From a virus (taxonomy: Duplodnaviria > Caudoviricetes): a stretch of 64,000 bases of DNA. Position 1 is the stretch's first letter; each line of letters begins with the position of its first letter. The translations under genes and the position numbers were made by a program. Positions 8,306 through 14,683 of the stretch are shown here, one piece after another. A model generated the notes under the pieces. That model had not been told where the DNA came from and made no database searches. It saw nothing but the letters and a program-made list of their open reading frames with translations. The stretch is taken from the IMG/VR virus record IMGVR_UViG_3300021255_002539, positions 288,001 to 352,000 of that record; one strand, written 5' to 3'.

Positions 8306-8758
8306 TCACTTGAGCAAGCCTTGAAGAACCTTTGCGCAGAATTTCTTGTCGCAATTCGTGGGAAGCATCTTCATCAAGCTTCCAAAGTCCTTCTTCGTCA
8401 GACTTCTGCCAAGTTGCTCTTCGTTCTTTGCAACCAACTCCTTTATGATTGCCTCAATTTGGTCGTTGGGAATCATGGATGGAAGAAATTCAGAAACAAT
8501 GGCAAGTTCACCCCTTGCCTTCTCCTCCAAGTCTATTCTGGATGCCATCTTCGCTGATTCAATGGAGTCCTCCACCTGCTTTGCGAACTTCTTGAGGCAA
8601 GAGACCACGATTTCCTCTGTGATGTCCTTTCCCTCGTTCACGGTCTTGTTCTTGACGTCAGAAACCACCATTCTGAGGACATCACTCTTCGTGGAATTGC
8701 CCGCCTTCATGGATTGCTTGATTGCATCTTGTATTCTGTCATATGTCTCGCTTGCCAT
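8306..8758 (-). CDS. GatB/YqeY domain protein
   Basis: I..AIKQSMKA..VLR..K..DSI...E....SEFLP..K.DFG.LMK. Confidence 0.85.
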   Translation of the reverse strand: MASETYDRIQDAIKQSMKAGNSTKSDVLRMVVSDVKNKTVNEGKDITEEIVVSCLKKFAKQVEDSIESAKMASRIDLEEKARGELAIVSEFLPSMIPNDQIEAIIKELVAKNEEQLGRSLTKKDFGSLMKMLPTNCDKKFCAKVLQGLLK

Positions 8759-9257: not shown

Positions 9258-9848
9258 TCAATTTCCCCCTTGCTTGTCGAACGCCCCGTAAAGCTTGAAT
9301 TTCTTGCTTATCTTGTGCGCATCATCGTCCTTGAGGGGCTTGAACCACATACCAACTGTGCAGGTTCCATCTGGGTTCTCTGGCGTCAAGTCAGTCTTGC
9401 AGTGGTCGTTGATGTAGCCATAATCTACACCTTCTACCAGACCCAGTTCCTTGATGGGTTCCTCTGTCTTGGACTTCAGTTGCTCCAGGTTCTTGGCCTC
9501 GCAAATGGTCTTGGTGAAGATGTCGTTGATGTAGCCCTCCCAGATGTCCTTTTGGATTTCAACTGTGACGCTCACTGTATTCCTTGGAAACTGCGTCTTG
9601 ACCTTGAAGTACTTCTCCCCGGCCTTGAACGCCTCCTCTGCCTTCTTGCAGACATCTGGGTGCTTGTATGTGGCTGGCCGACCAGGACGCCACGGATCTT
9701 CTGACAACAGGGTGTCGAACTCGTTGTCCTGCACATTGCCCGACTTCAACATGTTGGTGAAGAATGCCTCTGCGCAATGTCCAACCATTGCAGCCAGTTT
9801 CCCTGGCCTCAGATGAAGGTCTTTTCGGATTATGAATATGCGTCTCAT
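9258..9848 (-). CDS. Peptidyl-tRNA hydrolase, Pth2 family
   Basis: IIRKDL...GKLAAMVGH, FTKTIC, INDxCKTDL, T.TVG..P motifs. Confidence 0.8.
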   Translation of the reverse strand: MRRIFIIRKDLHLRPGKLAAMVGHCAEAFFTNMLKSGNVQDNEFDTLLSEDPWRPGRPATYKHPDVCKKAEEAFKAGEKYFKVKTQFPRNTVSVTVEIQKDIWEGYINDIFTKTICEAKNLEQLKSKTEEPIKELGLVEGVDYGYINDHCKTDLTPENPDGTCTVGMWFKPLKDDDAHKISKKFKLYGAFDKQGGN

Positions 9849-9864
9849 AGTGGTTCAATTATAC

Positions 9865-9898
9865 AAAAATCTACACTAGGCGCGAACCTAGTGTAGAT
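9865..9898 (-). terminator. Intrinsic terminator after the tRNA
   Basis: 12-bp stem ATCTACACTAGG/CCTAGTGTAGAT, loop TTCGCG, then a T tract. Confidence 0.85.
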
Positions 9899-9901
9899 AA
9901 G

Positions 9902-9980
9902 TGGCTGATCCACCTCCTTTGCCACGGAGGACCCAGCGGGTTAGAGCCGCTTGTGCTATTAGGCATTACACTATGGATCA
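9902..9980 (-). tRNA. Amber suppressor tRNA, anticodon CUA (probably Gln), with non-canonical D and T loops
   Basis: TGATCCA-TA-GTGT-AATGCCTAATA-GCAC-A-AGCGG-CTCTAAC-CCGCT-GGGT-CCTCC-GTGGCAAA-GGAGG-TGGATCA-G-CCA: all four stems pair, encoded CCA, U1-A72, G73. Confidence 0.9.
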
Positions 9981-10030
9981 ATTGAAACTGTCTCGTTTCT
10001 CATTGCCTTCAATTATACGAAATCCCAACA

Positions 10031-13000
10031 TCAGAAATCGCCCAAATCGACAGCATCAGAATCTTGCATCTTCACCGTGTTGTCTGGGGCCATGGATGGC
10101 GCGTTCTGAATCACCATTGCGCTTCCTACTGGTATCTTGTTCACTTCCTCCACATACTCCTAGAGGTTTCCATGTAGTCCGACTGCCGTCTCCTTGACCT
10201 CGGTGAATGTCTTCTCTGAAATCTTGTCTCCACGTATCAAGGCCAGCTTCAACTCCCGTTCCTCCCTGGGCAGTTTTGCGATTCTGTTCTCTGCCTCTTG
10301 CTTGATGTTGTTCACATCGTCGCCCAGTGACTTCAAGTCCTCGTCAGTGACCTTCCCAGGATCCTCAATCAACTTGCCGAGTATAGTTTCGTAGTTCTGC
10401 TCCTGCTTTTTGATTGCCTCCGCCGCCTTGATCTTCGCTTCCGCTATTACCAATGCTTCCTTGCGCTTGGCTTCCTCCTTGAGTTTCCTCTCGCGTTCCT
10501 CCTTTGCCTTGCGCTCCTCCTCTGCTTTTCTTGCTGCCTCTTTTGCCTCCCTCTGGCGGCGTTCCTCCTCTAGCTCTGCCATCGTCTTTGGTGGTTCCAA
10601 TGGGGTGGCGTTGTCGGCAATCTGACCAGGTTTCTTGACAATCGACTGACCTTGCATCTGCGAGGATATTCGCTTCTTGCGCTCGTCTCCGAACGCCACC
10701 CACACCTTCTTGAGTTGGTCCAGGTATCTGATGTCGCCCGTGAACTTCGCCTCGTACTGTGCCTTTTGCATCAAGGGTTGCAGGAGGTCTATGTTCTTCT
10801 GCAGTTCGACATCTGTCATTTCAGACATCTTCCCCCACAGACCAAACCACGTCTTCAGTATGGTGTCCTTCTCCTTGTCGTTGGGAATTCCCAGGCTTTT
10901 TCTGTACTCATCGAGTTTCTTGCGTTGTTTAGAGTTCGCGTTCGAGTAGTCGATGAGCCTCAGTTCCATGTTCGGGAATCTGAGGTACTTCTTCATGAAT
11001 CCAAACAGAAGTGGGGGTCGGAACAGAATCAGGAGTTTGTTGATCGAATCGTCGAGTGCCTGTTTGGACTTCTTGTCCCTGTTCGTGATGAAGTTGCCCA
11101 GTGCGTCCTCCACCCTGTTCCACTGGGGGATTATCTTGAAGGAAATGTACTCCAGGAAGATTTGAGCGAAGGCCCTCTGGGATGGGAGGTCGTGGAACAT
11201 ATTCTTCCAATCGAACCCCCGTATGTTGACGAAGTTGAAGAAGTTCCATGCCAGGCTGGCCAGAGGGGTTGTCTGGATGTCGTCCCCAAAGTCCTTGTCG
11301 AATTTCTTGATTATCTTGTTCTTGACGAAGAACTCTATTATTGGGATGGCGACTTGGATGCTGTTGTGTATTTGGCCAGACGAGAACAGGTCCAGTACGC
11401 CTCCATCGAACATCAGGCTCCTGACATCGCCGTATCTTATCCCAAATGCGGTAATGTCCTTCACCTTCTGGAGGATCCGCATGGTCTCGTACATCCTCTT
11501 GGACTTCCTGGAGGCGGCCTTGGCCTTGTCCAGAATCCCATCCTCTGGCTTGGCGTCGTACTTGCTCAGGTTCTTGTCGTAGTTCAAGAACCGTTCGATG
11601 CCCGCCTGACCCTTCTGAACTGGCTTCTTGAATGCTGACGAGATTTTCGAGACGATGTTCTTGTTGATTTGAATGGAATCCTCGATGCCGAAGGCCAGTC
11701 CAAACTTGGTCTCAACCTGGGTGTTCGCGTTCTCAAGCGAGTTGTTTTCGTCGGTTATCTCGCCCTTTTGGAGTCTGGTGTAGAAGTCTGTGAACCTGTT
11801 CTTGAATATGACGTTCCGTTCAACATCGTACCCACCAACATCGTGGTCGGCCAGTGCAGAGTTCCATTGCTTCCATTGCACCGCATAGTCTGCTATGTCG
11901 AGTTCCTTGGACTTGGTTGGATCCCAGAAACTGGGCTTGCCCAGGTCCTTGCACACGTTTTCGTATATCTCCCTGATGGCCTTCGCCCTGGCCAGTTCGT
12001 ATAGAATTGGGTGCACAGATATCTTCGCCTTGTTCTGCATCCATGTGAATGGCAAGAACCCAGTTGATGTGGTCTCGGCCTCTGCTGGACTGCCGAAGTA
12101 TATGTCTGGGGTCTGGTGTATGGACTCGAATGGGTTCAGTGGTATTATCGTCCTCAAGTCGCTGGCCATCACCCGATATCCAGGGTTCCATCCACTCACT
12201 GGGTCGTACAACAGACCCTGGACATTCTTGAACCTCTGGGACTTGCTGAGTTCGGTTATGTAGATGTCGAGTGCTTGAATCTGTGGCTGGATCGTCTCGG
12301 CGATCTTCCTGGCCTTCAGTTCCTTCAACTTCCTGCCCCTCTCCCTGGCAGCCGCGAATGGGTTGTACAACAAGGGTTGGTTGGCCTTCCATTCGTCCAT
12401 GTGCTAGTCGAGTTCCTGGCTGATGGTTGTCATGTTGGCGTTCAACCTGGCCAGAAGGTCGTTTGTTCCCCTTTCCTTGAGCCTGTTCTCTGTCTCCTCC
12501 CTGGTCGTCTTCTCGTCTACGGCCTGCTCCTGAATCTCCTGCGCCTTGCTGAACGACTTGGAGTACCGCATGTCCACGCTTCGCATTATGGCTCCACGTG
12601 GGATTCCACCTTGGAGCGTGGACTTCGACTGACCCTTACCTGTCTATAGCCCTGGGATGTTCACCATCTGGTTCTTGAAGGTCTTCACGCCCCTGCCAGC
12701 CTTCTTCAGGGCAGCCATGTAGACATTTATCTGACCCTTGGAGTCAGCCATCATGTCCTGGACATTGTTCTGCATCGCCCTCTCTGCGTCTGCCTTCTTG
12801 TTGTTCCAGTGGAGCATCACTTGGGTCGAGATGAAGGTGATTATGGCTGGTATGAGCTTGACTATGAACGACAGTATTGGTCCGACCCCGGGGACAATGC
12901 TCAGAACCCAACCCAGAATCTTGGCCAGTACCCCACCAGCAGATTTCCTCACTACGCCAATCAACCATGCGCCAAACAGCTTCCTCATGGTGTTCCTGGT

Positions 13001-14683
13001 CTCTATTCCATCTCTGATGGCACCCTTCTTTCCGAACAACTTCTTCTTGATGCCCTTGAAGAACCCAGACAATCTGTCGATGAAGTTCCTCAGACCAACA
13101 GTGACGAAGTTGTATATCCCCAGACCAATTGACTTCAGTGTACTCCATCCAGGTATTGGAACCCCGAATATCGTCATCTATGAACCATCGTTCTTGGGCA
13201 TGTACGCCTATGACCACTTGTTCAGGGCGAATCTGGTCAGACCTATCAGAATCAACGCTCCCAGGGCGAACACCATGAACTTCCCAATGCCACCAAAGAA
13301 CATTCCAAGCAGGGCATTGGCCTTCGCCTTTGCCTTCAACATGAATATCTGCCTTTGGGTCTTCTTCAAGTTCTTGGCTATTTCAGACTCCCCCTTGTCG
13401 ATCTTCTTCATCTGCTGGCCCAACCCCTTTTGGATTGCGTTGTAGTTTGGGGAGAACGCATTCACGAACTTCTTGTTTTGCAGTGTCTTCTGGAGGTTGT
13501 TGTGTATCTTGCCCAATGTGGACACTACGCCAGCTCTGGTTATGGAACCACCTTCAGCCCCAGGTTCCCGAATCGCACTGGGCAATTGGGTGTCCTCTGT
13601 TGGGCCGTGTGGTTGACCCAATTGGTGTACATGTCCACATATTGGGCAAGTGCACAGACCATTTGACGCCTTTTTTGTTGGGGACACATCAATCTTCGAC
13701 TGCTTTTGATCCACCTCTGGAATCTTTGTCTTCTCCAGACCCTTGGATTCCTTCGCAAAGAGGGATATGTCGTTCTGGATTTCCTTCTCGTATTGCTTCT
13801 GTTCCTTCTCCAGTTCCCTCCATTGCTTCCCATCCTGTTCCACAACTTCTGGCTGTGTCTGATCAATTCCCCCAATTTGATTACTACCCTCGATTTCACT
13901 TACCAGTTTTCTGAGGTCAATCTGTTTTGGTGGCTTGTTGTCCTGTAACTTGACTTTCTGACCTTGTTGAATTGCCTTGTTCAACTGGTCTATGCTGGAC
14001 GAGATGCCCTGTTCAACGTCTCCAGACAAGTCCAGTGTCTTGAGCATGGACTCAATCTGGCTCAATCTCTCCAGTTTCCATTGCTCGTCCTCGTCAGCCA
14101 GATTCCCCAATGCGTCTACTGTGCCTTGACCCTGCTCGGTTAATGTCTTGTTGAGGTTGTCGATGTCCTGTTGCTGACCTTCCTTGGACTTCGCCCATTC
14201 CAGTTTCCTTCTCTCGTATTCCCTAGAGAGGTTCAGCCTAACCTGTAGAATGGCCGTCTGAAGTTCGTCCATGAAGTCCAGCACCACCTGCATTATGTCG
14301 CAGTTGTCTGGCGTGAGTGTCTTGAGGACGACTTGCTTTGTCGTCTGCGACACCATGGCGGAATCCACATTCTCTGGGGTGAGATTGGCTTGATTTGCCT
14401 TTATCACTTCTGAGATTTTGTCGACAGTCTTGGAGTCTTTGACTATGTTCAGAAACTTCTCGTCAAGCGACCGATAGATGGTCCTAGGCAAGTATTCAGA
14501 ATTTGCGCCCTATTGGGTCAATGCGCCCTGTGTAAAGTCGTCGAACAGCCTGCCGAGTCCATTGTAGATGTCCTGCATGTGCTTTGTGGAGGACACTGGC
14601 TCCACGCCACCAACAAACGAAGTGAAGTTCTTCGTTGCTGAATTGGCTACTGCCTACAGGTCTTGTGTTTTTGGCTAGGACAT
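10031..14683 (-). CDS. 1550-aa virion protein, tape-measure-like (TAG read-through, 8 internal TAG)
   Basis: Four code-11 ORFs (13208-14491, 12644-13177, 12404-12586, 10160-12400) share one frame and are separated only by TAG; helical, with central hydrophobic G-rich segments; GTAAATA upstream. Confidence 0.8.

Follow-up and report, generated by a model that had tools for sequence, protein, structure and literature searches.

A scanner-invisible amber tRNA on a tRNA-Gln scaffold in a TAG-recoded jumbo phage, with a remodelled elbow that may be a D-loop/T-loop helix

Which tRNA reads UAG in a phage that uses this codon for glutamine, and can a cloverleaf devoid of both hallmarks of the tRNA elbow be that tRNA? 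These questions are raised by a 79-nt element on the minus strand of the window, that is, the 64,000-nt stretch of phage DNA analyzed here. Amber suppressors were detected in only 40% of TAG-recoded phages by Borges et al., whose guess was that non-canonical tRNAs escape detection (bioRxiv 10.1101/2021.08.26.457843), and in 61% in a survey of jumbo phages, where the guess was borrowing from hosts (PMC13037316).

The source record (414,060 bp, with terminal repeats) is rated complete and carries T4-like capsid, portal and terminase genes. When TAG is taken as a sense codon, the coding cover goes up to 89% (from 85%), genes as long as 3,880 codons are joined, and about 110 called genes contain in-frame TAG; the portal gene has a TAG inside its Pfam match, and the terminase gene needs read-through. 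The homologue residues aligned to TAG are Gln in 40 cases, Glu in 17 and Lys in 11, those opposite homologue stops are Gln in 31 and Lys in 18, and the residue preference at TAG follows the order at true Gln codons except that Glu and Lys are swapped. Judged from these alignments, the phage genome reads TAG as Gln. According to rough in-house gene calls, TAG is present in 37 of the 74 genes behind the late-type RTAAATA motif (139 TAG in total) and in 6 of the 68 genes behind GTATAAT (8 in total). A release factor, GlnRS/GluRS and GatB were sought in the phage genome and none was found, which should leave charging to the host. The element under study is the only standard-sized CUA cloverleaf found in the complete 414-kb genome; a large tRNA cluster located about 64 kb away, together with a tmRNA, includes no CUA tRNA. 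The tmRNA (L219:13038-13370, minus strand; 85 bits in Rfam) appears to encode a tag ending YRMAA; ARAGORN, run for tRNAs only, did not list it.

Both the minimum-energy and the centroid structures of the element are cloverleaves (-26.5 kcal/mol, z -1.33), with a 7-bp acceptor stem that includes U1-A72 and G2-C71, G73 followed by an encoded CCA, a 2-nt linker, a 4-bp D-stem with an 11-nt D-loop, a 5-bp anticodon stem with the loop CT-CTA-AC, a 4-nt variable loop, and a 5-bp T-stem with C-G as the closing pair and an 8-nt T-loop (Table 1). A loop-agnostic cloverleaf finder at strict settings returned 23 matches in 414 kb, all 23 of them tRNA-like, which, along with the stem covariation in homologues, places the cloverleaf far above chance. 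A preliminary description of this DNA had reported the full CUA cloverleaf with these acceptor-end and anticodon-loop features, a dedicated TATAAT near 10013, a terminator, the absence of both the D-loop GG and the T-loop TTCRA, and the exact reverse complementarity of TGCC in the D-loop (9965-9962) and GGCA in the T-loop (9923-9920). All of this is confirmed here, with both predicted folds and the stem covariation in agreement, the hexamer placed at 10017-10012, and a 13-pair hairpin with a T-run identified downstream, at 9898-9869. The promoter scanner made no call at the TATAAT; support for the promoter comes from its conserved position in relatives. The leader (9981-10005, minus strand) contains a small GAAAC/GTTTC hairpin ahead of the tRNA that is common to different cassette types and is a possible processing signal.

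Table 1. Features of the amber tRNA gene and its neighbours in the window
Feature	Position	Strand	Evidence
Amber tRNA gene, anticodon CUA, tRNA-Gln scaffold, encoded CCA	9902..9980	-	cloverleaf fold and covariation in five variants
11-nt D-loop without GG; conserved RCC at 9964-9962	9957..9967	-	
Anticodon CUA, identical in 5/5 variants	9942..9944	-	
8-nt T-loop, consensus GTGGYRRA, closed by C-G; GGY at 9923-9921	9918..9925	-	
-10 hexamer TATAAT, predicted tRNA promoter, no -35 match	10012..10017	-	hexamer in this slot in ten relatives
Intrinsic terminator, hairpin of 13 pairs followed by a T-run	9864..9898	-	hairpin shared with L222 and L240
Upstream gene of 1550 codons, function unknown, marks the conserved slot	10031..14683	-	open only with TAG as sense
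Downstream Pth2-family peptidyl-tRNA hydrolase gene, no TAG	9258..9848	-	PF01981, E 5e-9
Stand-alone YqeY gene, optional neighbour	8306..8758	-	PF09424, E 2e-27

The expectation that standard scanners would struggle with such a tRNA was borne out: ARAGORN did not report it even with the threshold lowered to 60%, and Rfam did not match it at E values up to 10. The tRNA lacks the canonical RF00005 attributes, i.e. G18-G19, T54-psi55-C56, A58, G53-C61, a 7-nt T-loop and a score at the gathering level. Several ordinary tRNAs of the phage (Gly GCC and TCC, Lys CTT, Gln CTG, Ser GCT and GGA) likewise go unreported by ARAGORN.

Relatives of the locus were reached via the protein of the upstream gene, at 40-57% identity. 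In ten relative loci, the corresponding slot, again behind a TATAAT, holds a CUA tRNA of one design or another, namely the remodelled one in L222 (= G005) and L223, tRNAs with a long variable arm and a canonical elbow in L220, L226, L228, L229 and L242, and tRNAs with an A18.G55 elbow in L240, L241 and L271 (one long-armed and two short). The presence of different CUA tRNAs in one slot makes it an exchangeable amber-decoder cassette; the tree of the upstream protein has no well-supported branch, and we therefore claim no order of events. Two further remodelled variants (L235-238 and L239) reside in tRNA clusters of other contigs, which brings the remodelled set to five variants, the window tRNA and four more, all of which are missed by both ARAGORN and Rfam. 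All 21 stem pairs are kept across the five variants, with double-sided changes in 8, and the loop residues CC, GTGG and the last A are fixed even in variants whose stems have diverged. G73 is replaced by A in L239, and C33 is found in the L222 variant. No full-length relative was recovered when the tRNA and Pth2 were compared by BLAST with GenBank phages, BLAST of the L237 tRNA gave only partial matches to crAss tRNA-Gln, a GTDB scan produced four chance matches, none with a cloverleaf, and loose DNA pattern searches returned mostly chance matches.

Several peculiarities of the slot deserve mention in their own right. L223 (4893-5102) carries tandem CUA tRNAs, one canonical and one remodelled, each with its own TATAAT. 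The amber tRNAs with a long variable arm occur in phages that read TAG as Gln (L220, L226, L228, L229, L240, L242), an unusual build for a Gln acceptor. Directly upstream of the canonical CUA tRNA of G001, a 30-nt remnant of an acceptor stem and D-arm (L220:5228-5257) suggests a mini-helix or what is left of a replaced cassette. AT-rich, TAG-containing homing-endonuclease-like genes are inserted immediately after the tRNA terminator in L222 (4560-5330), L240 (4500-5488; called Phage_endo_I) and L271 (4547-5072).

With regard to the other neighbours, the upstream gene has 8 in-frame TAG codons, 6 of these past the first ten codons. The Pth2 gene, a constant neighbour of the slot, has its own TATAAT (9863-9858) behind the tRNA terminator, and YqeY was found only in this phage (G000) and in G005 among the loci and genomes tested. 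An obligatory tRNA-Pth2-YqeY module was accordingly rejected, given also that L237 and L239 carry the remodelled tRNA inside tRNA clusters.

The identity set of E. coli tRNA-Gln consists of U1-A72, G2-C71, G3-C70, G10-C25, Y34, U35, G36, A37, U38 and G73. The window tRNA has U1-A72, G2-C71, G10-C25, Y34, U35, A37 and G73, with A3-U70, A36 and C38 in place of G3-C70, G36 and U38; A36 is required for UAG reading, and the phage's own tRNA-Gln genes also partly lack G3-C70 or U38. The D-stem and the first two acceptor pairs, U1-A72 and G2-C71, are identical to those of the phage tRNA-Gln(UUG) and of annotated crAss tRNA-Gln(CUA), in accord with the GlnRS identity elements (U1-A72, U35, G73) pointed out in the preliminary description. 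By these sequence features, the element is a genuine amber tRNA on a tRNA-Gln scaffold, of the code-15 suppressor class. U1-A72 serves both GlnRS and the bacterial GatCAB, and GatCAB does not accept tRNAs whose D-loop has an additional base (PMC2811023); given the long D-loop, the direct charging route seems the likelier one.

We propose that this tRNA would be the amber decoder of the phage, transcribed alone from the TATAAT promoter, aminoacylated with Gln by the enzymes of the host and employed in UAG reading in late genes, such that packaging and virion genes would be translated only after the tRNA accumulates. We consider such a decoder function very probable, with transcription, charging, suppression and timing all deduced from the gene and its context. 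The opposite view, that the gene is a decoy or a decayed tRNA and that UAG is read by a 153-nt tRNA-like RNA or by a host tRNA, appears highly unlikely. It could account for the canonical CUA tRNA beside the remodelled one in L223, for C33 in one variant and for the conservation of the 153-nt RNA in G000, G001 and G005. However, it is at odds with the stem covariation, the invariant anticodon, the intact promoter and terminator, and the replacement of canonical CUA tRNAs by the remodelled one at the same slot; moreover, C33 is found in 6 of the 112 ordinary tRNAs of these phages as well, and the 153-nt RNA is present also in G001, which has a canonical suppressor. This RNA (L219:12410-12562, minus strand, = G000 367409-367561) combines an acceptor stem, CCA and a T-arm with a long stem and an invariant loop containing CTCTAGA, shows compensatory stem changes in G001 and G005, has no match in Rfam, and is possibly a decoy or an unusual amber-related RNA.

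If the tRNA is the decoder, how is its elbow built? In the arrangement that we favour, the D-loop RCC (9964-9962) would run antiparallel to the T-loop GGY (9923-9921) in a 3-bp helix that would replace G18.U55 and G19-C56 and keep the L-shape; both loops would have been lengthened to permit the helix, and a fourth pair would be optional. The RCC/GGY complementarity is found in all five variants as a 3-bp Watson-Crick core, with one G-C to A-U double change, a single compensatory event, in L222/G005; the CC and GG never vary and hence provide no covariation signal. The fourth (U-A) pair is formed as U-A in one variant and as U.G in two, and is open in the remaining two, so that three pairs of the 4-bp loop-loop helix envisaged in the preliminary description are conserved throughout and the 4-bp version, broken in two of the five variants, was abandoned. 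Complementarity by itself is not beyond chance, considering that the 4-nt D/T match gives p values of 0.08 (shuffle) and 0.057 (uniform) and that D/T complements of 3-5 nt occur in 10 of the 112 ordinary tRNAs. Both loops are, however, longer than those of nearly all the 112 comparison tRNAs, as the helix would need: the T-loop has 8 nt versus 7 nt in 111 of the 112, and 4-5 nt lie between positions 19 and 21 in the remodelled tRNAs versus 1-3 nt in 109 of the 112.

The same loops can also be accommodated in a near-canonical elbow of the same decoder with a flipped C19-G56 stack, an alternative that is somewhat less probable. With the T-loop numbered from its first base as G54, U55, G56, G57 and Y58, G 9964 would be G18 facing U55 (9924), C 9963 and G 9923 would form C19-G56, G 9922 would be the intercalating purine 57, G54 would pair with Y58, the extra base would lie in the 59/60 bulge, and the reverse complementarity would be a by-product. 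On the same five-variant alignment, 100% of the cells are paired in this register too; the D/T covariation that the preliminary description had proposed to look for in homologues is represented by one double change (L222), which the flipped register pairs equally well. Starting from a canonical crAss-type D-loop, only G19-to-C and an insertion would be needed; G54 and Y58 are paired in all five variants; and position 57, G here, is a purine in 112 of the 112 pool tRNAs. An argument that position 57 is a pyrimidine was discarded, as it holds under one numbering only. Precedents for the flip exist, with C19-G56 in the phage tRNA-Ala(UGC) and in 3 of the 112 pool tRNAs, A19-U56 in 3 more, and, within one crAss-like TAG-recoded lineage, G19-C56 (L299), C19-G56 (L290), A19-U56 (L294) and A18.U55 (L291), all in canonical register with C20 constant. 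Against the flipped stack, G54.Y58 (G54.C58) is found in 0 of the 112 pool tRNAs, and G54.C58 is not a known trans Watson-Crick/Hoogsteen pair; A18 is combined with U55 in 0 of the 74 pool tRNAs that have U55; the lengthening of both loops is left without a reason; and the L222 double change must be a coincidence.

A functional suppressor without any stable D/T contact, its loops being conserved for protein binding or the like, would have parallels in tRNA-Pyl and type II mitochondrial tRNAs, which function without G18/G19 and T-psi-C (PMC7609411). This is the least probable of the readings, in view of the invariance of CC, GTGG and the last A despite diverged stems and the preservation of the complementarity. 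[quoted passage not shown]

The ribosome, RNase P and the enzymes that modify the T-loop all read the surface of the tRNA elbow. Several unrelated amber tRNAs depart from the standard elbow in different ways, and the altered elbow would fit selection against elbow-reading host factors, in line with the evasion of host nucleases or modification enzymes that the preliminary description put forward as a possibility, but it would also fit drift. Elbow change is not special to the suppressor, given that 44 of the 112 ordinary tRNAs of these phages also have an elbow other than G18.U55/G19-C56. One published case of evasion, going by its title, concerns changes to the anticodon loop (PMC10264068). 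In the L219:6900-16000 region (minus strand; G000 362-371 kb), many ordinary tRNAs combine A18.G55 with G54.G58, A54.U58 or C54.A58. Amber tRNAs with non-canonical loops in other TAG-recoded contigs (L305:1911-1989, L293:2001-2077, L206:2642-2720, L324:3911-3986) have T-loops that start with AGC or AGA, one of them 6 nt long, and constitute a separate remodelled family.

Whichever geometry applies, the phage carries a natural amber tRNA in which the elbow is strongly altered, and the remodelled family, found by our model R1, is a concrete class of missed suppressors. The helix and the flipped stack make opposite predictions for three point mutations and are thus directly testable. Amber suppressor tRNAs as such are known; the remodelled natural build seems to be undescribed, no account of it having been found in the largely non-subscription literature on natural and phage elbow variants that we covered, and the flipped-stack rival to the helix is new here. 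The composite proposition, namely a natural, translation-active tRNA with a D/T-helix elbow that is conserved in several recoded jumbo phages, is invisible to scanners and explains part of the missing suppressors, we hold tentatively, at just under an even chance.

The closest known tRNAs are the suppressors of the crAss phages cr60_1 (KNV49_gt02) and cr53_1 (KNV47_gt01), which, at 49-50 bits, are among the canonical CUA tRNAs that are the best outside matches to R1. They share with the remodelled tRNA the CUA anticodon, the anticodon loop, the D-stem, U1, G2, the 4-nt variable loop, the encoded CCA and a genome in which TAG means Gln. Only the crAss tRNAs have the D-loop GG, a 7-nt TTCGA loop and G53-C61, in contrast to the RCC, 8-nt loop and C-G closing pair of the remodelled tRNA, and they are reported by both ARAGORN and Rfam, which miss the latter. 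The other crAss-like amber tRNAs (L290:2898-2973, L294:229-305, L291:784-859, L299:3040-3116) belong to four types, three of which ARAGORN misses. The elbow-variant tRNAs of these same phages and of crAss-like phages (A18.G55, C19-G56, A19-U56) also depart from G18.U55/G19-C56, and the GCC/TGG sub-motif is found again in L290, but their T-loops stay at 7 nt, G53-C61 is mostly kept, and position 58 is a purine or another non-complementary base. The tRNA-Pyl is similar in having CUA, G73 and neither G18/G19 nor T-psi-C; its 1-nt linker, 5-nt D-loop, 6-bp anticodon stem and 3-nt variable loop (PMC7609411) contrast with 2 nt, 11 nt, 5 bp and 4 nt, respectively, in the phage tRNA, and tRNA-Pyl identity was rejected on account of this architecture and the alignment of TAG with Gln. 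[quoted passage not shown] Those tRNAs were selected in the laboratory and the phage tRNA is natural, so that, if the helix is real, it would be a natural case of an architecture hitherto described from selection experiments.
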